This document shows, piece by piece, positions 1 to 8,472 of a stretch of DNA of 8,472 nt. Each line of letters starts with the position of its first letter. Position 1 is the stretch's first letter. The position numbers and the translations under genes are program-made. The notes under the pieces are model-generated. The model was not told the origin of the DNA. It saw nothing but the letters and a program-made list of their open reading frames with translations, and searched no databases. Source of the stretch: a virus (lineage: Duplodnaviria > Heunggongvirae > Uroviricota > Caudoviricetes); the IMG/VR virus record IMGVR_UViG_2579778919_000012; one strand, 5' to 3'.

Positions 1-648
1 TTACTTCCATCCACACGCTTTTTGAAGTGGCTTCAATGCCTCTGACAGACCAGCAACATCAAATGTCGCACTCACGGGACTTTCATTGTAAGGCGTGATC
101 TGAGTAAACATTGAGTTAGCCTGGCTCAGCGCCTTGACGAACTCGATGACATTGCCACGATAAAATACCGATTTGGTATCGCTAGATATGTCCCATGTTT
201 TCGTTTTTGCCTTCTGTTTATCCAAGCGAGATAACATCTGTGTTTCGTTCAACCCAAGATAGGTATCCCAATTGAGGAAAAGTTCTGTTTTTTTCTCGCG
301 GCAAGTGATGTAAAGACTTGGTGTGATCGATTCCCCAAACTGCGACCGGAAAGAATCATTAGCAGAAAGGCTAACATAAACATTCTCTGAATCATCCACG
401 GGTGAAGTTTTCGTGGATACCTGCCATTTTCCAACACCTACTACTGGCTTAGCCTCTTCGGCTACTTTCGGTGGAAGAACCTTATCGTAACAAGCTAAAC
501 GCGCATCACTTTTTGCCTCGGATTGGCATTTCATTAATGCGTCATTGTTAATATCGGCTTTAACTGGTTCTACCGCATACGCTGTTGATACAGCAGAAGA
601 GCAAAGCGCCATAGCAATGATTATCTTTTTCATACCATTACCTTTCAT
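1..648 (-). CDS. Hypothetical secreted/periplasmic protein (cleavable Sec signal peptide, cysteine-containing mature domain); family not recognised
   Basis: 215-aa ORF. N-terminus MKGNGMKKIIIAMALCSSAVSTAYA-VEP has a hydrophobic core and an AYA cleavage motif; no canonical lipobox. The true start may be the internal ATG at 633 (MKKIII...), which is preceded by AAGG about 7 nt upstream. The annotated ATG at 648 overlaps the upstream gene's stop as ATGA. GC is roughly 43-46% by eye, against 55-62% in the tail genes. Confidence 0.55.
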   Translation of the reverse strand: MKGNGMKKIIIAMALCSSAVSTAYAVEPVKADINNDALMKCQSEAKSDARLACYDKVLPPKVAEEAKPVVGVGKWQVSTKTSPVDDSENVYVSLSANDSFRSQFGESITPSLYITCREKKTELFLNWDTYLGLNETQMLSRLDKQKAKTKTWDISSDTKSVFYRGNVIEFVKALSQANSMFTQITPYNESPVSATFDVAGLSEALKPLQKACGWK

Positions 649-998
649 GATTTCGGGCGAGTAAAGAAAACAAACATTCCGATAATGATATCGCCAATAA
701 CCCAGATGGTTCCCAGCATCATCATCCCCAGCCCCGTACCAATTGCGGCTCCGGCCCGTTCTGCGTCTGAGGCTGCGTTATTGATAACGTCACTACTGCC
801 GCCAGCCCCGGCAAAAATGCAATAGATCATAAAGATGTTAAACAGGATAAATATCCACTTAACGATCTTGCCAAAAAATGAGCGCTTCGGCTTTCTGACC
901 TGATGGCCGCAAGACGGACATTTAAACGCTGAATCACTAATTTCTTTACTGCATTCCGGGCAGTTTACTAATGCCATTTTCCTAGACTCCATAGACAT
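645..998 (-). CDS. Small membrane protein with N-terminal zinc-ribbon (CPEC-x12-CPSC) and two predicted transmembrane helices; function unknown
   Basis: 117-aa ORF. The CxxC...CxxC motif is followed by a basic stretch (RKPKRSFFGK) and two hydrophobic segments (IVKWIFILFNIFMIYCIFAGAGG and MMMLGTIWVIGDIIIGMFVFFT). An alternative start at 977 (MALVNCPEC...) has a better GGAG/AGGA Shine-Dalgarno. The stop overlaps the downstream ORF start (ATGA), suggesting translational coupling. Confidence 0.55.
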   Translation of the reverse strand: MSMESRKMALVNCPECSKEISDSAFKCPSCGHQVRKPKRSFFGKIVKWIFILFNIFMIYCIFAGAGGSSDVINNAASDAERAGAAIGTGLGMMMLGTIWVIGDIIIGMFVFFTRPKS

Positions 999-1040: not shown

Positions 1041-1075
1041 AATAAATAAAAATTAACCCGCCATATAGGCGGGTT
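1041..1075 (-). terminator. Rho-independent terminator downstream of ogr (possibly bidirectional)
   Basis: An 8-bp GC-rich stem (1055-1062 aacccgcc pairing with 1068-1075 ggcgggtt) with a 5-nt loop. On the - strand it is followed by the T-rich tract AATTTTTATTTATT (1054..1041). It lies 3 nt after the ogr stop codon. On the + strand the same hairpin is followed by ATTTT. Confidence 0.6.
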
Positions 1076-1078
1076 ATT

Positions 1079-1321
1079 TTAGAGTGCCAGCGATAACTGA
1101 TCTTCGCCGTGGTGACTTCGTGGAAAAGCTTCTTGTGGCACCATCGCGCCGGGCGCTGGCTGGGTCTGGTTTAGTGAACCGTCTATTTCCGTCATGCTGG
1201 TGAAACAGTACCCGCACAACATATTTTGACACTGGTGATAGCTGCGTCGTACAAGCAAACTCAGCTCAACGCTGGTTCTGGTTTTTGCTATTGCACGGCA
1301 GCGAGGACAGCGCATTGCCAT
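1079..1321 (-). CDS. ogr: Ogr/Delta-family zinc-finger late transcription activator
   Basis: 80-aa ORF with Cys spacing C5-x2-C8-x22-C31-x4-C36 and the motif YHQCQN-x2-C, matching the P2 Ogr zinc finger as I recall it. Strong RBS AAGGAGG 8 nt upstream of the ATG. Sits immediately downstream of gene D, as in P2. Confidence 0.88.
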   Translation of the reverse strand: MAMRCPRCRAIAKTRTSVELSLLVRRSYHQCQNMLCGYCFTSMTEIDGSLNQTQPAPGAMVPQEAFPRSHHGEDQLSLAL

Positions 1322-1369
1322 ACGCGGGCCTCCTTTCAGGACTGGTTAATATCAACGCAAGTATAACGC

Positions 1370-2488
1370 TTAAGACGTTGAATCGTCACTCTCCGCTGTC
1401 CAGTCGTCGATTTTTACTTCCAGTTCCAGCGACGTGGTAAACCCTCCCCCGCCAATATCGTGAACGCACCGCGTTATCGTCCAGTTCCCACTGTCGATCG
1501 TGGACTTAAAGCCGTAGACGCTGGCGGGCTGTTCCGGGTACAAATCTGCGCGGCCACGCGCCAGGGTGATGCTGAACGTAGCCGCACCGCGCTGCAACTC
1601 CCGCCACTTAGCCGCAGCGGCACGCTTCGCCGCCTTTTCCGTCTTGAAGGTTTTACGTATAACAAAAACGTTACCTTCGGCCCCGGCCAGATAATCACCC
1701 TCTTTTTTGCTGGATGCAGGCTCTTTCTTTTTGGCCTGGCTGGTTCGTCGCCTGCGGGTTGTTTTCTTCACGGTAGTGGATGGTTTCTTGCCAAAGTTGA
1801 GATCAAGCCAGTATGCAGTTACGCCCGTGTACGCGTCGCGGTCAGCTACGTTAAAGCTATGTTTATCACCGCTTGACCGGACTATCTCGATCACCGGCAG
1901 CGGCTTGCCGCTCTGCGTCACTCCTTTGCCCGGCGTGATAAACAGAAGCATACCGTTTTTAATGGTTGCCACCGCGCCCAGCATTTCGGCCATGCGCGTT
2001 AAGAAGCTGATATCTGATTCACTCGTCTGATCGGCGTGGTCTATCTCAATCTTCGCCAGTTCTTCGCTGACACCCGCACGCAGATCGTAGCGACTGGCAA
2101 TGCTGGCGACCACATCCCCCACGGTAATATCGTGCCAGCTATATTCCCTTTTCACGTTGAAGGTATCGCGGAAATCTGCGCTTCTGGCACTGATCGTTAG
2201 CTGGTCAGGCGGGCCTGAATGACCTATCTCATCAACCGTATACACGCCCTTAAAAACCAATGGATCATTATCCCAGCCCAGCGCCACCGATATCTTTGCG
2301 CCGCGTGGTGGTAATGCTACCTGCCCGTCTGCATCATCCAGAGTCAGATCCAGCGTGTCCGCTTCAAATCCCCGGTTATCTGTCAGGGAAAGAGAGATCA
2401 ACCGGTTATCCAGCGCCGTAAGCTGATTACCTTCAATTTCAATACTGAACGCCGGGCGCGGCGAATATCGGTTTTCTGTCGTGTCCAT
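1370..2488 (-). CDS. D: Late control gene D protein (P2 gpD family; baseplate hub, VgrG/gp27-like)
   Basis: 372-aa ORF, close to the ~387 aa of P2 gpD, lying directly upstream of ogr on the same strand. RBS GAAGGGG 5 nt before the ATG. Contains an internal Lys/Arg-rich linker. Family call is from recalled similarity and synteny, not a search. Confidence 0.8.
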   Translation of the reverse strand: MDTTENRYSPRPAFSIEIEGNQLTALDNRLISLSLTDNRGFEADTLDLTLDDADGQVALPPRGAKISVALGWDNDPLVFKGVYTVDEIGHSGPPDQLTISARSADFRDTFNVKREYSWHDITVGDVVASIASRYDLRAGVSEELAKIEIDHADQTSESDISFLTRMAEMLGAVATIKNGMLLFITPGKGVTQSGKPLPVIEIVRSSGDKHSFNVADRDAYTGVTAYWLDLNFGKKPSTTVKKTTRRRRTSQAKKKEPASSKKEGDYLAGAEGNVFVIRKTFKTEKAAKRAAAAKWRELQRGAATFSITLARGRADLYPEQPASVYGFKSTIDSGNWTITRCVHDIGGGGFTTSLELEVKIDDWTAESDDSTS

Positions 2489-2554
2489 ATCAACCCCTTC
2501 ATCATGATGGGGTACATCGTCGCCACGCGCGCGCGCATGAACAACGCCCCGTCA

Positions 2555-2574
2555 TTGTTGCAGGTTGCTGACAA
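2555..2574. promoter_or_regulatory. Ogr-type late promoter activator site (TGT-N12-ACA dyad) in the divergent D/FI intergenic region
   Basis: Exact TTGT-N12-ACAA inverted repeat (tgt 2556-2558, aca 2571-2573), centred at 2564.5. That is about 81 bp upstream of the FI ATG and about 76 bp upstream of the D ATG. P2/P4 late promoters carry TGT-N12-ACA centred near -55. A weak -10-like GATATT lies at 2611-2616 for the + strand. Confidence 0.6.
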
Positions 2575-2645
2575 CCCTTATTCATCGCATCAGCCTGCCA
2601 TTGCCGCAATGATATTCGCAGTCATTAAACTGGCGAGGCAAATAC

Positions 2646-3839
2646 ATGGCCACTAACTACCATCACGGTGTAACCGTCACGGAAACCACCGACCTTAGCA
2701 CGATGATCACCGACATTGATTCGGCGGTGATCGGCGTTGTCTGCACCGCTGATGATGCGGACGAAACAGCGTTCCCGCTGGATACCCCTGTACTGATCAC
2801 CCGCGTGGCTAACATGCTGGGCAAGGCAGGTAAAACCGGCACCCTGTTTACCACCTTGAAAGCGATTTCAGACCAGACCAGCCCGCAAACCATTGTGATC
2901 CGCGTTGCTGATGCTGCAAATATCGAACCGCCAGAAGGCGGCACCGCACAGACACAGGATCAACTGGTTATTGGCGGCACCGATGCAAACGGACGCTTTA
3001 CCGGCATGTACGCGCTGCTGTCTGCCGAAATGCGCGTAGGCGTGCGCCCGCGTGTGCTGGCTGTTCCCGGTCTTGATACGGAAGCGGTGGCCGCACAACT
3101 CGGCGTCATTGCCGAAAAGCTGCGCGCGTTTGCTTACGTGGCAGCGAACGGCTGCAACAGCATCGCCGAAGTGAAGGAATACCGCGAACAGTTCTCCCAG
3201 CGTGAAATGATGGTTATCTGGCCTAATTTCATCTGCTACGACACCAACGCCGGAGCGAATGCCACCGTGCCCGTGGGTGCCCATGCGGTTGGGATGCGCG
3301 CCAAAATCGACGCAACGCAGGGCTGGCATAAAACCATTTCCAACGTGCCCGTTAATAACGTGCTGGGGATGGATCGGGATATCTATTTCACGTTGCAGGG
3401 CACCGATACCGACGCCGACGAACTGAACGCAGCAGGCGTTACCACGCTGATCAAGCAGGACGGCTACCGCATCTGGGGATCGCGTACCTGCGACGCGGAA
3501 ACGTATATCTTCGAAAGCTATACCCGAACCGCGCAGATCGTTGCGGATACCGTCGCCGAAGCACATTTCGCCTATGTTGATAAACCGCTTACCCCGTCGC
3601 TGGTAAAGGACATTGTGGACGGCATCAATAAGAAGCTGACCTCATATGTGACGGCTGGCAAGCTGCTGGGCGCCCGCTGCTGGTATGACCCGGAACCGAA
3701 TACCTCGGAAACCCTGCGCAATGGTCAACTGACCATTAAGTACAACTACACCCCTGTTCCACCGCTGGAAAATCTCAGCCTGGTACAGGAGTTCACCGAC
3801 GAATATTTCGCTACGTTTTCCAGCGCAGTGAATAACTAA
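2646..3839 (+). CDS. FI: Contractile tail sheath protein (P2 gpFI family)
   Basis: 397-aa ORF (P2 FI is ~396 aa). N-terminus MATNYHHGVTV resembles P2 FI (MSDYHHGVQV) as recalled, with conserved-looking blocks such as LRAFAY, WHKT and YTPVPPLENL. RBS GAGG 7 nt upstream. Followed by the tube gene. Confidence 0.9.
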   Translation: MATNYHHGVTVTETTDLSTMITDIDSAVIGVVCTADDADETAFPLDTPVLITRVANMLGKAGKTGTLFTTLKAISDQTSPQTIVIRVADAANIEPPEGGTAQTQDQLVIGGTDANGRFTGMYALLSAEMRVGVRPRVLAVPGLDTEAVAAQLGVIAEKLRAFAYVAANGCNSIAEVKEYREQFSQREMMVIWPNFICYDTNAGANATVPVGAHAVGMRAKIDATQGWHKTISNVPVNNVLGMDRDIYFTLQGTDTDADELNAAGVTTLIKQDGYRIWGSRTCDAETYIFESYTRTAQIVADTVAEAHFAYVDKPLTPSLVKDIVDGINKKLTSYVTAGKLLGARCWYDPEPNTSETLRNGQLTIKYNYTPVPPLENLSLVQEFTDEYFATFSSAVNN

Positions 3840-3851
3840 CCGGGGGCGCTT

Positions 3852-4367
3852 ATGGCACTGCCTAAGAAACTCAAATATTTCAATATGTTCTTTGACGGGG
3901 ATAACTACTTCGGCATGGTGCCGGAAATCACCCCCGCCAAACTCACCAAAAAAACCGAAGACTACCAAGCGGGCGGTATGCCGGGTTCGGTTGCGGTGGA
4001 TCTGGGCTTCGACGCTGGCGCCCTGGATATGGATATCACGCTGGGCGGCATGGATGCAGGGCTAATGAAAAAATGGGGCGTTACCACTGCGGACGGAATG
4101 CAGGTGCGCTTTGCTGGCTCTTACCAGGACGATGCGACCGGCGACGCCGTACCGTGCGAAATCCAGACGCGTGGCCGCTTCACTGAACTGGATCCCGGTT
4201 CGGCAAAGGTTGGGGATGATACTTCGCATAAGTACACCCTGAAAAACACCTATTACAAGCTGACCATCAATAGCGAAGAAATTATCGAAATTGATGTGCT
4301 CAACATGATCTACAAAGTTGCCGGTGTGGATGTGCTGGAAAAACACCGCGCTAACATCGGCTTATAA
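3852..4367 (+). CDS. FII: Tail tube protein (P2 gpFII family)
   Basis: 171-aa ORF (P2 FII is ~172 aa). Begins MALPKKLK and ends HRANIGL, resembling P2 FII as recalled. Sits immediately after the sheath gene, separated by 12 bp. Confidence 0.88.
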   Translation: MALPKKLKYFNMFFDGDNYFGMVPEITPAKLTKKTEDYQAGGMPGSVAVDLGFDAGALDMDITLGGMDAGLMKKWGVTTADGMQVRFAGSYQDDATGDAVPCEIQTRGRFTELDPGSAKVGDDTSHKYTLKNTYYKLTINSEEIIEIDVLNMIYKVAGVDVLEKHRANIGL

Positions 4368-4381
4368 GGAAACCCGGCACC

Positions 4382-4717
4382 ATGAGCAAGACCAAAGAAA
4401 ACACCGTTATTCTTACCGCCCCTATTACGCGCGGTAAGACCAAAATCACCGAAGTGGCGATCACTTCCGTGCTTAAACAGGCTGGATCACTGCGCGGCTT
4501 AAAAGCCTATGACGTGCTGACGTCCAACTATGACGCGCTGGTTATTCTGCTGCCCCGCGTTACCGCTCCGGCATTAACCGCCGATGAGATTGCCCGAATG
4601 GATACCTGGGATTTTTGCCAGTTAGCCAACGCGGTGGTTGATTTTTTGCAACCCTCTTCGGATCTGACCGCGACGGATACGGGCAACGAATCATCCGATG
4701 CCCCTGCGAACGCATAG
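4382..4717 (+). CDS. E: Tail assembly chaperone gpE (zero-frame product)
   Basis: 111-aa ORF between the tube and tape measure genes. RBS AAGGAAAC upstream. Contains the slippery heptamer T_TTT_TTG at 4642-4648 in the frame expected for a -1 shift. Confidence 0.8.
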   Translation: MSKTKENTVILTAPITRGKTKITEVAITSVLKQAGSLRGLKAYDVLTSNYDALVILLPRVTAPALTADEIARMDTWDFCQLANAVVDFLQPSSDLTATDTGNESSDAPANA

Positions 4718-4842
4718 AAGACCTGATGGCAGATATCGCCGTCATATTCCACTGGCGGCCGGTAGAGATGGACGCCATGACGGTACAGGAAATACTGTTA
4801 TGGCGTGATCAGGCGGCTGCGCGCAGTGGTGGAGATCACTAA
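4382..4842 (+). CDS. E': Tail assembly chaperone gpE+E' (-1 frameshift fusion product, about 153 aa)
   Basis: E residues 1-89 followed by 64 codons in the -1 frame (ATLFGSDRDGYGQRIIRCPCERIEDLMADIAVIFHWRPVEMDAMTVQEILLWRDQAAARSGGDH). I translated this by hand and found no stop. The fusion stop TAA (4840-4842) abuts the T start codon at 4843. Confidence 0.6.
4642..4648 (+). other. Programmed -1 ribosomal frameshift slippery site (TTTTTTG) for gpE to gpE+E'
   Basis: The heptamer T TTT TTG is in the X_XXY_YYZ register of the E frame (codons TTT 4643-4645, TTG 4646-4648). The -1 frame is open from 4648 to a TAA at 4840-4842. The same heptamer is used in P2 E/E'. Confidence 0.65.
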
Positions 4843-7800
4843 ATGGCAGACCGCAATTTAAATATCAGGGTGGCATTCAGCGCCCTGAATAATATGTCCC
4901 GCCCTGTCAACGCGGCGCGCCAGAGTGCCGCCGCGTTGGCGTCTCAAATCAATCAGACCAAAACCAGCATTAAAGGGCTTGAGCGTCAGGCAACCAGCTT
5001 TGACCGCCTCACCGCAGCCAATAAAAAAACCACCGAACAACTGGCCCAGGCGAAAGAACAGGCCCGGCAAATGGCGGCGGCTTATGGCCCGTTACGCCAG
5101 CGCAGCGCCGAACAGGTTGCCGCCCTCAATCAGCAACGTGCAGCCATTCGCCAGTTAACCCAGCAGCAGAAAGGCGAGCAGACGCAGCTTAACCAGTTGC
5201 GCGCCAGCTTCTACAGCGAAGGCATTGCGATCAGCAGCGCCAGCCGGGCGACGGAACAGATCAACCAGCGCACCGCGCAATACAACCGCCAGCTTGCCGA
5301 ACAGCAGCGACGGCTTGACGCTGTTAACCAGGCGCAGGCCCGTTACAGCCGCGCCAAAGAAACCGGCGAAAAGATGATGAGCGGGGGGATGAAAACCGCC
5401 GCAGTAGGGGCGGCAACCCTCGCACCTGTCGCCGCTGCGGTTAAATCATACAGCAGCCTTGAAGACGCCATGAAAGGCGTAGCCAAACAGGTAAACGGCT
5501 TGCGTGACGACAGCGGCAACCGCACCCCGCAGTATGAAGAAATGCAGCGGGCGATCATGGATGCCAGCGAAAAGCTACCAATGGCTAACGGCGCTGTTGA
5601 CTATGCCGCCCTGGTCGAAGGTGGCGCGCGCATGGGCGTGGCAAACAGCGATGATCCGTGGGAAAAACAAAAAGCCGATCTGCTGGCTTTCGCCAGCATG
5701 GCGGCAAAAGCTTCGGTAGCCTTTGAACTGCCCGCCGATCAGCTTTCTGAAAGCCTCGGTAAGATTGCCGGGCTGTATAAAATCCCTACCCAGAATATTG
5801 AACAGTTAGGCGACGCCATAAACTACCTGGACGATAACGCGAAGTCGAAAGGCTCCGATATTATCGACGTGCTCCAGCGCGTTGGCGGACTTGCCAGCCA
5901 ACTGGATTACAAGCAAGCCGCCGCGCTGGGTTCCACCTTCCTGACGCTTGGATCACCTGCCGAAGTTGCCGCCAGCGCAACCAATGCAATGGTGCGCGAA
6001 CTATCGATCGCCACAGTACAAAGCGATAAATTTTTGGGTGCGCTGGATGAAATCGGCATCAATGCTGAAAAAGTCCAGAAAAGCATGTCAGTGGACGCGA
6101 TGGGCACGATCATTTCAGTGCTGGAAGCGTCCAAAAAACTTGCACCAGATAAGCAGGTAGCCAACCTTACTCAGATTTTCGGTAAAGAGTTCGGCGATGA
6201 TGCGCAGAAACTTGCGAACAACCTGCCCGAACTACGCCGCCAGATAGAACTGACGCAGGGCGCAGCCGCTAAAGGTTCCATGAATCGGGAATCTGATATC
6301 AATAAAGCGTCCCTTTCAGCTCAGTGGCAACTGACCAAAACCGGCGCGGTTAACGCATTGAGTTCAGCAGGGGAAACGCTCCGCGAACCGCTGATGGATA
6401 TCATGCTTACCGTCAGTAAGGTGGTTGGCAGCGTCCGCCGCTGTGTTGAGGCAAACCCGGCTCTGGTTGGCTCAATCATGAAAGTCACCGCAGCCATAGG
6501 CGCGTTGCTGGTTGTCGTGGGTGGCCTGATGCTGACCATCGGCGCAGTGCTCGGCCCGATGGCACTTGTTCGCCTCAGCTTCACCACGCTGGCTGGCTCC
6601 GGTGGGGTAACTCCCCTCATAGGCTCGCTGGGAAAATTATCCAGCACATTACGCGGGCTGATCCCCTCACTATCTGGCGTGGGCCGAAGTATTAAAGACT
6701 GGCCTGCCCTCTTCCGATCTGCTGCGTCTGGCATTACCCAATTTAGTAAACAAGCTATTGGCGGGTTAAACACAGCGTTAATGGCACTTTCACGCGGTGC
6801 TGTTGCTGCCGGACAGGGGCTATTTACCCTATTCACAAGGCCTATGACGGCTATAACCTGGCTTGGTAATGGCCTCAGAACTCTGGCGACCTCCGGTTTC
6901 GGCGCTTTGCTGAACGTTGGACGCACCGTAATGATGGCGTTGGGTGGCGGGTTATCATTACTTCTTAGCCCTATTGGAATACTGGTAATCGCTTTATCAG
7001 CAGCAGCGATCGCCGTTATTAAATTCTGGGAACCTATAAAAGCCTTTTTCACTGGCTTTTACACCGGGTTAATGAGTGGCTTACAGCCTTTAACCTCAGC
7101 ATTTAGTACAGCCTTTGCACCACTAGCCCCACTCTTTGACTCTATCGGTAATGCTGTCGGTGGCGTCTGGGAGTGGTTCACAAAACTATTCGAACCTATC
7201 CAGTTCTCCAGCGAAGCGCTAGCCTCCTGCACCAGTGCCGGGGAAACGTTCGGTAAGGTTGTAGGTAACGCTCTATCTGCATTAACACCAATAATCGAAG
7301 GAATAGCGCGCGGTATAGGATGGGTACTGGAAAAACTCGGCGCCATCCCCGACGCAACAAAAGCAGCGCAGCAAGCTGCGGAAAGTATGCACAAAGACCC
7401 TGTTGTCTGGGAGTGGGATCCGCAGCAAAAGAAAATGGTTAAAAAGGGTTGGAACTGGTCGCCGAAAGACGATCAGCAGAAGAAAACCAACCAGAAGCAA
7501 CAGCAGGCCATTGACCAGCAGAAAAAGCAGGAAAGCTTAATTAACTCGCTCAAGGGCCCGGCCAACATCGTGCCGAAGATGAGCAGCAGCCTGGATAAGA
7601 TCGCCACCAATACCACGGAGAAGAAAGACGGCCCCGGCGAAATTGTCTTCAAGAATAAGCAGCCCTATATCCCGATCCGTGGTGGATATTCGGAACCGCT
7701 TAAGCAGGTGCAGCGCCAACTACCATCCCTTACCGATTGGGTGACGCAGCAGGCCGGATCGCTGATCGCTTCCGTTACGCCTTGGCAGGTTGAGAAGCCC

Positions 7801-8013
7801 GCCGCACGGATGCCTGTTTCGGCGTCTCCGTCTGCGGCTTCCGTCGCTGCGCTGATGCCTGCTCCGGGTGGCGATGTATATAACCTTAACTTCGACTTTA
7901 GCGGCCAGAAACTGGATGAAGAAACCATTATCAGGCGCGTGCGCGAAGAACTTGCGTTAGCGAAGCAACAGGCCGACCGGCGCAAGCGCTCCCAACTGAC
8001 CGATCACGTCTAA
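4843..8013 (+). CDS. T: Tail tape measure protein (P2 gpT family)
   Basis: 1056-aa ORF in the canonical position after E/E'. It has a Gln/Ala-rich N-terminal coiled-coil-like region, a central Gly/Ala/Leu-rich hydrophobic segment and a Lys/Gln-rich C-terminal stretch, all typical of tape measure proteins. It is longer than P2 gpT (~815 aa). Confidence 0.9.
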   Translation: MADRNLNIRVAFSALNNMSRPVNAARQSAAALASQINQTKTSIKGLERQATSFDRLTAANKKTTEQLAQAKEQARQMAAAYGPLRQRSAEQVAALNQQRAAIRQLTQQQKGEQTQLNQLRASFYSEGIAISSASRATEQINQRTAQYNRQLAEQQRRLDAVNQAQARYSRAKETGEKMMSGGMKTAAVGAATLAPVAAAVKSYSSLEDAMKGVAKQVNGLRDDSGNRTPQYEEMQRAIMDASEKLPMANGAVDYAALVEGGARMGVANSDDPWEKQKADLLAFASMAAKASVAFELPADQLSESLGKIAGLYKIPTQNIEQLGDAINYLDDNAKSKGSDIIDVLQRVGGLASQLDYKQAAALGSTFLTLGSPAEVAASATNAMVRELSIATVQSDKFLGALDEIGINAEKVQKSMSVDAMGTIISVLEASKKLAPDKQVANLTQIFGKEFGDDAQKLANNLPELRRQIELTQGAAAKGSMNRESDINKASLSAQWQLTKTGAVNALSSAGETLREPLMDIMLTVSKVVGSVRRCVEANPALVGSIMKVTAAIGALLVVVGGLMLTIGAVLGPMALVRLSFTTLAGSGGVTPLIGSLGKLSSTLRGLIPSLSGVGRSIKDWPALFRSAASGITQFSKQAIGGLNTALMALSRGAVAAGQGLFTLFTRPMTAITWLGNGLRTLATSGFGALLNVGRTVMMALGGGLSLLLSPIGILVIALSAAAIAVIKFWEPIKAFFTGFYTGLMSGLQPLTSAFSTAFAPLAPLFDSIGNAVGGVWEWFTKLFEPIQFSSEALASCTSAGETFGKVVGNALSALTPIIEGIARGIGWVLEKLGAIPDATKAAQQAAESMHKDPVVWEWDPQQKKMVKKGWNWSPKDDQQKKTNQKQQQAIDQQKKQESLINSLKGPANIVPKMSSSLDKIATNTTEKKDGPGEIVFKNKQPYIPIRGGYSEPLKQVQRQLPSLTDWVTQQAGSLIASVTPWQVEKPAARMPVSASPSAASVAALMPAPGGDVYNLNFDFSGQKLDEETIIRRVREELALAKQQADRRKRSQLTDHV

Positions 8014-8022
8014 GGCAATATC

Positions 8023-8472
8023 ATGATGATGATTCTGGGGATGTTCCCCTTTTCACTGCAAACCACACCTTACCAGAGTGCGAATAAAACCAACTCCTGG
8101 CGGCACGTCAAAAACGATCGCGTGGGGAAATCCCCGCGCTATCAGTTCATCGGCGCAGATGAAGAACCGTTCGTACTCAGCGGCACGCTGTACCCCGAAA
8201 TAAGCGGCGGTGATGTGTCGCTTGTCATGCTGGAAACTATGGCTTTTTCCGGGCGCCCGTGGCCCCTGATAGAAGGCACGGGCAGGATCTACGGCATGTA
8301 TGTAATTGAGCAGATCACGCAAAACCGGACGGAGTTTTTTAAGGACGGGAAGGCAAAGAAAATTGATTTCACGCTCAACCTGAAACGGGTAAGCGAGGAC
8401 ATACGGGAAAAGCTGGCTGAAACCACTACCGACGATCTCTTCTCTCTGGTGAAAACCAACCTTTCGATATAA
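8023..8472 (+). CDS. U: Tail protein gpU (P2 GpU family)
   Basis: 149-aa ORF directly after T (P2 gpU is ~159 aa). N-terminus MMMILGMFPF and the blocks RPWPLIEGTGRIYGMYVI and RTEFFKDG resemble P2 gpU as recalled. The stop codon is the last triplet of the window. Confidence 0.85.
   Translation: MMMILGMFPFSLQTTPYQSANKTNSWRHVKNDRVGKSPRYQFIGADEEPFVLSGTLYPEISGGDVSLVMLETMAFSGRPWPLIEGTGRIYGMYVIEQITQNRTEFFKDGKAKKIDFTLNLKRVSEDIREKLAETTTDDLFSLVKTNLSI

Follow-up and report, generated by a model that had tools for sequence, protein, structure and literature searches.

The closest described relatives of the tape measure gene analysed here belong to Salmonella phages SEN4/SEN5 (Senquatrovirus, Peduoviridae). 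Their tape measure protein (YP_009191766) counts 974 aa and is encoded in the same prophage type, with the same gene order; their tail length was given in the SEN4/5 paper only as a pooled range (107-149 nm over four phages). Phage P2 gpT (NP_046782; 2448 nt, 815 aa) has the same role and the same operon place, after E/E' and before U. In TP901-1, tail length scales linearly with the size of tape measure deletions, and the hydrophobic regions of the protein matter for both assembly and infection (PMC5099701). In the T4 tape measure, a coiled coil is combined with a transmembrane segment and an amphipathic bundle, and the protein forms the channel (bioRxiv 10.64898/2026.03.06.709160).

Gene T, its setting and its parts

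The window (i.e. the whole stretch of 8,472 nt that was analysed) displayed the gene order FI (sheath), FII (tube), E, E' (-1 frame), T and U. The tape measure ORF T (4843-8013, 1056 aa; plus strand, like all features below unless stated otherwise) lies inside this tail tube/sheath cluster, directly 3' of the frameshifted tail chaperone pair. The latter spans 4382-4842, with E at 4382-4717 and the E' extension ORF at 4726-4842 in the -1 frame, and PF06528 (Phage_P2_GpE) was matched on the 38-aa ORF. A TAAATG overlap joins E' to T, the frame relation being read from the sequence. Downstream of T, tail protein gene U (8023-8472) displayed a match to PF06995 (Phage_P2_GpU), and gene D (1370-2488) was found upstream of FI on the minus strand.

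T matched TIGR01760 (268 bits against a cutoff of 28.8, aa 189-555), PF10145 (77.4 bits against 33.2, aa 238-447) and phrog_28 ('tail length tape measure protein', E = 6e-150). Its homologue is labelled tape measure in SEN5 and E. coli genome records. T is a TP901-family phage tail tape measure protein, as both profiles were above their curated cutoffs. The window was 93% identical to SEN5 at the nucleotide level over D-FI-FII-E-T(5') and 96% over T(3')-U, while aa 1-585 and 901-1056 of T were 89-99% identical to the SEN5 protein. By this identity and collinearity, T belongs to a SEN4/5-like (Senquatrovirus-type) P2-family prophage of E. coli.

Similarity to P2 gpT was partial. Alignment by blastp covered aa 692-850 (34% identity) and aa 5-193 (28%), and nothing else; the core was essentially unrelated (14% over aa 181-538). 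P2 gpT has two hydrophobic stretches, as T does, yet its linker is short and about 134 residues of the C-terminal region are absent. P2 genes are ordered FI-FII-E-E'-T-U-D, whereas the window keeps FI to U and has D upstream on the other strand. T is hence not a P2 gpT orthologue of the genus Peduovirus type, the similarity being partial and D misplaced. The initial annotation had described T as enlarged relative to P2, and its lengths (1056 versus 815 aa) were correct. Yet P2 gpT turned out to be an unsuitable yardstick since no more than about 160 + 190 aa could be aligned. Relative to it, the extra length was split over two or more places (about 106 residues within aa 539-730 and about 134 within aa 836-1056).

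The N-terminal module of T (aa 1-180; 4843-5382) was 99% identical at the amino acid level to SEN5, 78% to sister tape measure P0017 and 22-32% to P2, RE2010 and Kp4849. It is probably a coiled coil, as suggested by weak SMC/Rad50 coiled-coil matches over aa 11-245. The TP901-type tape-measure core domain (aa 189-555; 5407-6507) is delimited by the two profiles above. When aa 181-538 were compared, Felsduovirus RE2010 and Klebsiella phage Kp4849-2 shared 68-70% of residues with T, whereas P0017-P0022 shared only 14-19%. Two transmembrane-like stretches were called from the hydropathy scale only. Stretch 1 (aa 539-580; 6457-6582; Kyte-Doolittle 19-residue mean peak of 2.53) was 96% identical to SEN5 and sits just upstream of the left breakpoint of an exchangeable block, termed block A below; stretch 2 spans aa 695-732 (6925-7038; peak of 2.51).

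The conserved amphipathic module (KFWEPIKAFF ... VWEWF ... GWVLEKLG) covers aa 727-850 (7021-7392). In tblastn, the matches of T to P2, 186, PSP3 and numerous further Peduoviridae tape measures were confined to this module, in which invariant and near-invariant alignment columns cluster. The stretch flagged in the initial annotation includes this sole module conserved across P2-like tape measures. Further downstream come module B (7333-7540), a Lys/Gln-rich segment with motif KDPVVWEWDPQQKKMVKKGWNWSP and normal GC3, and the conserved C-terminal part (aa 901-1056; 7543-8013), which displayed 94-100% nucleotide identity to all sister alleles and 96% amino acid identity to SEN5.

An AlphaFold model of aa 530-900 was all-helical but of low confidence (pLDDT 49), which makes the helical prediction weak. 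Sequence searches found no solved structural homologue of T. The antisense ORFs at 6321-7052, 7059-7394 and 7665-7985 were without PHROG match, and no Rfam family was found within the window. Promoter-like sites (1 versus 1.1 +/- 0.9 in shuffles) and terminator-like sites (4 versus 1.6 +/- 1.1) inside T were called close to shuffle numbers.

Breakpoints, codon usage and reassortment

Over its full length, the gene was 98% identical at the nucleotide level to alleles of E. coli 730V1 and ECONIH5, which carry the 1056-aa form, as does SCD1. Comparison with shorter sister alleles (974-981 aa) delimited block A, a low-GC3 segment of 739 bases (6594-7332; aa 585-830). Its flanks were 93-100% identical to six sister alleles, including that of Salmonella phage SEN4/5. 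The left edge was sharp: every short allele diverged at 6594-6597 after 58 identical bases. The right edge was placed at 7332, the KMi029 allele (981 aa) being 100% identical again from 7333. Between these edges, 6597-6999 did not align with the short alleles and 7000-7332 displayed about 72% identity. Outside T, E and E' were 100% identical in amino acid sequence between prophages with long and short alleles, and U was identical over 149/149 residues in 730V1, KMi029, 1332KP and PO06101.

Measured against these nearest alleles, the extra length was indeed concentrated, since 75 of the net 82 extra residues correspond to aa 599-673 (6637-6861). This longer version of the linker, which connects the two transmembrane-like stretches, lies wholly opposite gaps in SEN5, KMi029, 1332KP, EC09, PO06101 and RE2010. 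It is basic, only mildly hydrophobic and devoid of Glu. The corresponding region of P0017 and P0018 displayed 48-56% identity to it and has motif LPSLSGVGRSIKDWP as well. The conserved module inside block A was diverged as well (76% amino acid identity to SEN5). The history of block A differs from that of the rest of T, and the length change came about by replacing about 740 nt, not by insertion.

A compositional shift had been noticed by eye between about 6720 and 7320, and windowed calculation established a real dip in T, which was clearest at third codon positions. GC content was 55.0% for T as a whole, 59.0% for 4843-5600, 49.6% for 6720-7320 and 50.2% for 6700-7330. Of the ten 60-nt blocks in 6703-7302, five were at 42-47% GC, as first estimated, but the mean over the stretch was about 50% and not 43-47%, and the 5' end of T was at about 58-63% GC rather than at 60-67%, so that the first values were overstated. 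A few 60-nt blocks of equally low GC occurred elsewhere in T (e.g. at 5743 and 6163). By contrast, GC3 was 46% for aa 586-833 versus 64% in the remainder of T (Fisher p = 7e-7), and none of 5000 codon permutations of T gave a 248-codon stretch with so low a value. Codon usage in block A was unlike that of the rest of T and of the other tail genes, Leu codons passing from CTG-dominated outside to TTA/CTA-dominated inside the block.

Such a dip might arise without foreign origin, either from Gly/Ala/Leu-rich coding or from selection for slow, rare codons in a membrane-like segment. The region is indeed Gly/Ala/Leu-rich, as first described (Gly 14%, Ala 13%, Leu 15% over aa 540-835), the block is hydrophobic and rich in the rare Leu codons TTA and CTA, and low GC3 was retained in three diverged block variants (the window, P0073 and P0077). 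Yet the dip survived stratification by amino acid (103 GC-ending codons in the block versus 148 expected; Mantel-Haenszel odds ratio 0.39, p = 2e-11), which led to rejection of amino acid composition as its source, and GC2 was higher, not lower, in the block. Moreover, no GC3 dip was seen at the homologous place in the short alleles of SEN5 and KMi029, which code for the same kind of segment, nor in the homologous long linkers of P0017, P0018 and P0020, so that the dip reflects history rather than coding constraint. The coding-constraint reading was thus largely refuted and we regard it as highly improbable.

Module B was 100% identical to that of the KMi029 short allele. An unrelated module occupies its place in SEN5, 1332KP and PO06101, and a third kind was encountered in EC09 and P0065; motif KDPVVWEWDPQQKKMVKKGWNWSP was also found in Symbiopectobacterium tape measures P0012 and P0014. 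Two alternative C-terminal tails occurred among the alleles, the last 45 aa or so being replaced in P0064 and P0112. Long and short forms of block A were each found together with B1, B2 and B3, as well as with two C-terminal tails. Block A, module B and the C-terminal tail therefore reassort independently and most combinations exist. With its sharp breakpoints, codon-usage shift and independent assortment, gene T is mosaic.

The initial annotation had also drawn attention to a repeated VWEW motif, encoded twice by the same 12-mer. GTCTGGGAGTGG does occur exactly twice in T, at 7165-7176 within the conserved amphipathic module and at 7405-7416 within module B, each copy being off by one from the position first given (7166 and 7404). 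The copies are in frame and 240 nt apart, which might be taken as the trace of an internal tandem duplication that lengthened T, and this mechanism was at work in Klebsiella phage Kp4849-2, whose long linker contains a significant internal repeat (score 60 versus 31.6 +/- 5.8 in shuffles). However, alignments of the insert with its flanks and of half with half were at chance (p = 0.46-0.79), neither a relevant tandem repeat nor any DNA repeat exceeding 18 nt was found, and the two copies lie in non-homologous modules that reassort independently. An origin of the extra length in this way is thereby refuted for T, its likelihood being negligible. The match stops at 12 nt and the copies are similar over four residues only. 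Copy 1 aligns with AWQWF in P2 and LWGWF in RE2010. The repeat is not remarkable either, since T holds another exact 12-mer pair and 21 repeated 4-residue peptides (13 +/- 3.7 in shuffles), and identical coding of both copies is expected because Trp has a single codon. The 12-mer was likewise rejected as a recombination or duplication scar, being away from the breakpoints, without extension and in non-homologous modules. The VWEW repeat is coincidental.

Age, spread and origin of block A

The 1056-aa allele is already common and annotated in public databases: it was recorded in E. coli, Citrobacter, Enterobacter, Klebsiella, Cronobacter, Salmonella and Mangrovibacter, and one of its clusters comprises 232 members. 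In a set of 5.8 billion proteins, a query with the block alone returned partial proteins only, while the full-length query revealed the allele classes. No close source of the block emerged. Distant blastn/tblastn searches of 50,697 phage records yielded no donor and, for the linker, no tblastn match; the 5,426 E. coli genomes searched contained none; when 1.84 billion representative proteins were searched exhaustively with HMMER, identity reached 58% at best. Among one genome per species, aa 586-710 had no close match and the conserved module alone was matched (at most 54%, in Brenneria, Symbiopectobacterium, Izhakiella and Serratia). P0017 was ruled out as donor because GC3 of its block is 72%. 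As to the nature of the donor, we infer from the AT-ending rare-codon usage that the block family originated in a gene pool whose GC3 was below that of the remaining phage genes.

Homologous long linkers were present in all five sister tape measures found (971-1043 aa). Those of P0017, P0018, P0020 and P0022 (1022-1043 aa, in loci with the same D(-)/FI/FII/E/T/U order) displayed 48-67% amino acid identity over aa 599-730, motif LPSLSGVGRSIKDWP included. Their N- and C-termini were of similar type to those of T, but their core was of a different type (14-19%) and their linkers had no GC3 dip.

The initial annotation had proposed the in-frame acquisition of a segment of different origin. Its distinct history, sharp edges and distinct codon usage were confirmed, whereas the polarity of an acquisition that enlarged the gene is doubtful. 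A short P2-like ancestor that recently gained a foreign segment, enlarging protein and tail, would agree with nearest alleles 75-82 aa shorter and differing in one block, with foreign codon usage in that block where the short alleles match the rest of the gene, and with a long block in only 2 of the 31 complete E. coli genomes carrying gene T. Against it, the long block is also present, with a GC3 of 44%, in the P0077 locus, which is 81% identical over 8.4 kb and where the block is as diverged as the flanks; an 88% identical variant exists in P0073; long linkers are general among the sister tape measures; about 740 nt were replaced rather than inserted, the conserved module within being diverged too; and P2 gpT is barely alignable to T. 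A recent gain of this kind is improbable. Since diverged relatives share the block, its entry is old, and this copy did not gain the long block by a recent insertion. It may be the short allele that is derived, and the replacement could have run from long to short or from short to long.

It is very probable that T of this SEN4/5-like E. coli prophage is a gene built of modules, among which block A is one exchanged module of old, low-GC3 origin and not a recent insertion. The modules are exchanged among related prophages, homologous recombination taking place where the gene is conserved, and block A encodes the long linker (+75 aa), hydrophobic stretch 2 and the larger share of the conserved amphipathic module. 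Tape measure genes are well known to be mosaic, and the block A finding is ordinary phage gene mosaicism. Alternatively, block A and module B might be kept as interchangeable cassettes by diversifying selection, exerted on this region by prophage superinfection-exclusion proteins or host inner-membrane factors, the length change being a side effect. Imm, which acts on T4 gp29, is a precedent for exclusion aimed at a tape measure. We consider this rather unlikely; if true, exchanging a cassette would alter the range of lysogens or hosts open to injection by the phage.

Tape measures with tested function and T

By analogy with other phages, three to six copies of T would fill the tail tube in assembly, chaperones E and E+E' would keep it soluble, and it would set the count of tube and sheath rings. 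At infection, T would be expelled and its hydrophobic part would help form an inner-membrane channel, a membrane role that we infer from the same analogy. If the 82 extra residues adopt an extended helix, the tail could plausibly exceed that made with the 974-981-aa alleles by about 12 nm (about 3 rings).

T offers a clean, mapped case of recombination within a phage structural gene, with base-level breakpoints, at least three independently assorting modules and an 82-aa length dimorphism confined to one block. It also provides natural near-isogenic pairs that have identical E, E' and U and differ little in the tube protein. Such pairs bear on whether hydrophobic linker residues in the tape measure of a myophage contribute to tail length, and on whether the block A region governs injection specificity or exclusion escape.

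SEN4/5 differs from T in the following: a linker with 75 aa fewer, a conserved module at 76% amino acid identity, a different module B without second VWEW, and no GC3 dip. Lambda gpH, TP901-1, mycobacteriophage tape measures and T4 gp29 combine a length-ruler role with hydrophobic membrane-interacting segments, as proposed for T. Function was tested by mutation and microscopy in these systems, while T is known from sequence alone. There, length changed through in-frame gain or loss of segments, whereas in T it changed by allele replacement, and not by deletion or duplication of repeat units.

Gene order and the tape measure gene

The window is one end of a P2-family prophage, the one that holds the tail genes. 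Its DNA was 93-96% identical to that of Salmonella phage SEN4/SEN5 (Peduoviridae, Senquatrovirus) over 1055-6596 and 7517-8472. The minus strand carries a VasI/TagO-like gene (1-648), a zinc-ribbon gene (645-998), ogr (1079-1321) and D (1370-2488); these are followed by FI (sheath, 2646-3839), FII (tube, 3852-4367), E (4382-4717), the E' extension ORF (4726-4842; 38 aa, PF06528), the tape measure gene T (4843-8013) and U (8023-8472). In contrast to the P2 order FI-FII-E-T-U-D, gene D lies here beside ogr and upstream of FI, encoded by the minus strand, an arrangement common to all SEN4-like loci examined. The E' frame is -1 relative to E (stop at 4715-4717), which fits a P2-type E/E+E' frameshift, and its TAA overlaps the ATG of T (TAAATG). 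A 50-aa ORF (2504-2656, plus strand) between D and FI overlaps the FI start; it has no family match on record, is hypothetical in the SEN5 annotation and is called in several related loci. The VasI/TagO-like gene is tagged 'type VI secretion system-associated' and forms with the zinc-ribbon gene a pair of cargo genes beyond ogr. This pair (1-998, minus strand) constitutes a second compositional island (GC 42-46% versus 53% for the window), missing from SEN4/5 and found in E. coli 730V1 (adjoining fieF) and at the locus of P0077, a tape measure protein from database searches.

Every profile library pointed to T as a tape measure protein (TIGR01760, 268 bits versus a cutoff of 28.8; PF10145, 77 bits; phrog_28, E = 6e-150). 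E. coli 730V1 and ECONIH5 carry prophages with a T gene 98% identical over its whole length, and L912_3793 (E. coli SCD1, contig ATJZ01000076.1) is a database entry for the exact protein. As the initial annotation stated, it is larger than P2 gpT (1056 versus 815 aa), with which it aligned only at aa 692-850 (34%) and 5-193 (28%). In a multiple alignment, weak enough that counts are approximate, ~106 residues faced P2 gaps in aa 539-730 and ~134 in aa 836-1056; the 241-residue excess is therefore not concentrated in the stretch flagged earlier. The proposal that the extra length lies in one block did hold against SEN5, where 75 of the net 82 additional residues corresponded to aa 599-673, all facing a single gap.

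Composition, boundaries and content of block A

GC had been estimated at about 60-67% near the 5' end of T and 43-47% in several blocks between 6720 and 7320. Half of the 60-nt blocks in this stretch were at 42-47%, but a few blocks elsewhere in T were equally low and the mean was close to 50% (49.6% over 6720-7320), versus 59.0% at 4843-5600 and 56.3% at 7517-8013; raw GC alone made a modest case. The case at third codon positions (GC3) was strong and the shift real: aa 586-833 displayed 46% versus 64% in the rest of T (Fisher p = 7e-7), and none of 5000 permutations yielded a 248-codon stretch as low. With amino acids held fixed and expected counts drawn from the rest of T together with D, FI, FII, E and U, the block contained 103 GC-ending codons versus 148 expected (Mantel-Haenszel odds ratio 0.39, p = 2e-11), leucine shifting away from CTG, 52% of its codons in the reference set, towards TTA and CTA. 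GC2 was higher in the block, so that amino-acid content pushes GC the opposite way. The announced Gly/Ala/Leu richness was also found (14%, 13% and 15% over aa 540-835).

T was aligned with six sister alleles (SEN5, 730V1, KMi029, 1332KP, EC09 and PO06101). As far as 6593, each shorter allele (974-981 aa) matched the window at 92-100% identity, and all started diverging at one point, 6594-6597; they were unalignable over 6597-6999 and ~72% identical over 7000-7332. KMi029 returned to 100% identity from 7333 and the other shorter alleles to 94-100% from ~7543. This shared divergence point and the return of identity from 7333 indicate that the low-GC3 stretch coincides exactly with a single recombination block, named block A (6594-7332, aa 585-830). 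E and E' were identical in every sister E. coli allele, as was U except in EC09 (139/149), and FII reached 166-171/171, which confines the exchange to T. EC09 carries its own diverged segment (T codons ~640-800) over the conserved module and the next module downstream, also with low GC3 (37-47%), which suggests repeated imports from a lower-GC3 pool.

By hydropathy, aa 539-580 and 695-732 stood out as two strongly transmembrane-like stretches (peak 19-residue means of 2.5). Between them sit the 75 extra residues, only mildly hydrophobic, Gly/Ser/Ala/Leu-rich, basic and devoid of Glu. Just before the first stretch, Cys534 (6442-6444, RRCVEANP) is a private substitution at a conserved position, every compared allele and database relative displaying Trp (RRWVEANP). 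Downstream lies an amphipathic module (KFWEPIKAFF ... VWEWF ... GWVLEKLG, aa 727-850), present in a diverged version in SEN5 (76% aa identity) and the only part of T common to P2, 186, PSP3 and many other Peduoviridae tape measures; the 'foreign' stretch thus takes in the part of the protein with the widest conservation. For aa 530-900, AlphaFold modelled nearly all helix, a result that deserves little weight (pLDDT 49). Sequence search recovered no solved structure homologous to T, antisense ORFs over the block had no family match, an Rfam search of the window gave no match, and promoter-like and terminator-like sites inside T were near their counts in shuffles.

The repeated 12-mer GTCTGGGAGTGG, coding twice for VWEW, does occur exactly twice (7165 and 7405). 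The first copy belongs to the conserved module, aligned with AWQWF in P2 and LWGWF in RE2010; the second has an unrelated context. Both are away from breakpoints and the DNA match ends at 12 nt. Since Trp has a single codon, identical coding of the two peptides has a ~1-in-8 probability by chance; T contained 21 repeated 4-residue peptides versus 13 +/- 3.7 in shuffles. The repeat is fortuitous or, at most, reflects convergence on a W-x-W feature.

Relatives, age and reassortment

An internal duplication was rejected as source of the extra piece, self-alignments being at chance (p = 0.46-0.79) with no DNA repeats. This differs from Klebsiella phage Kp4849-2, whose long linker clearly arose by tandem duplication within the gene (a significant repeat of a ~45-aa unit, L..AGAP.ALLR.GL, at residues ~624-720 of its translated ORF); that phage arrived at a similar form by another route. 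The unit is present once in Salmonella phage RE2010. In an exhaustive search of aa 586-730 against 1.84 billion representative proteins, matches through the whole linker were tape measures P0017-P0020 and P0022 (971-1043 aa, 30-58% identity overall), P0017 and P0018 being 48-67% identical over aa 599-730. They have in common with the window the motifs LPSLSGVGRSIKDWP and FTxPxxA...LGNGLRxLAxxGF, and the extra piece is homologous to their linker. Gene order was that of the window at the three loci with DNA fetched (P0017, P0018 and P0020). Yet the core domain (aa 181-538) of P0017-type proteins differs in type (14-19% identity), whereas that of the window resembles RE2010 and Kp4849-2 (68-70%); with different nearest relatives for linker and core, T as a whole is a patchwork.

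Coding constraint was rejected as cause of the GC3 dip, which is absent from the linkers of P0017, P0018 and P0020 (72%, 68% and 54%, each at least equal to its own flanks) and from SEN5 and KMi029. P0073 carries a block variant 88% identical between flanks 97-100% identical (GC3 43%), paired with a SEN5-type downstream module. P0077, from a metagenomic locus collinear with the window (81% identical over 8.4 kb), also has the long block with the dip (44% versus 59-63%), its divergence from the window being about equal in block (73-85%) and flanks (74-91%). The dip, present in the window, P0073 and P0077 but not in the long linkers of P0017, P0018 and P0020, is thus a historical mark of this block family predating the split of the window and P0077 lineages. 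The suggested different origin agrees with a sharp block of foreign-type GC3, but any such event would be older than this split. No donor was found in phage records, species-representative genomes, the 1.84 billion representative proteins or E. coli genomes. Outgroups favour the long form as ancestral among these phages, and the short allele may be the derived one.

Module B (7333-7540) holds the second VWEW within the Trp-rich motif KDPVVWEWDPQQKKMVKKGWNWSP (7390-7470, aa ~850-875), which is without family annotation and is conserved as far away as the tape measures P0012 and P0014 of Symbiopectobacterium (loosely also in P0020). The module was 100% identical in KMi029, which carries a short block A, unrelated in SEN5, 1332KP and PO06101, and of a third type in EC09. 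Among the 120 best database relatives and E. coli alleles, both block forms occurred with all module types (long/B1, long/B2, long/B3, short/B1, short/B2 and short/B3), and module B assorts independently of block A. Two alternative C-terminal tails were also recorded. In P0064, P0112 and P0077, the last ~45 aa (equivalent to ~7880-8010) read GGDMFNIEINISG...QRIREELTIAIQQ in place of GGDVYNLNFDFSG...RRVREELALAKQQ, a third independently assorting module.

Putative role and distribution

The role of T follows from family membership and synteny, with lambda gpH as an analogue. The TP901-1 (PMC5099701) and T4 gp29 (bioRxiv 10.64898/2026.03.06.709160) tape measures are further ones. By analogy with these three, T would lie extended in the tube lumen and set the count of tube and sheath rings, while chaperones E and E+E' would cover its hydrophobic parts as the tail assembles; on infection, T would exit the tube and help form an inner-membrane channel. 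At 1.5 Å per helical residue, 82 more residues would lengthen the tail by ~12 nm or about three rings, although an extended form is uncertain for hydrophobic hairpins; for SEN4/5, the published tail lengths are only a pooled range (107-149 nm). The T4 tape measure is a binding target of the exclusion protein Imm (bioRxiv 10.64898/2026.03.06.709160), and comparable binding could plausibly explain why the cassettes here are diverse.

Under the annotation 'phage tail tape measure protein', the 1056-aa allele is widespread, with records in E. coli, Citrobacter, Enterobacter, Klebsiella, Cronobacter, Salmonella and Mangrovibacter (232 members in one cluster); among complete E. coli genomes, the long form was in the minority (2/31 carriers). 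That tape measure genes are mosaic and vary in length belongs to textbook phage biology. Though genuine and mapped with precision, the block exchange in T is an ordinary, well-resolved example of this familiar mosaicism.
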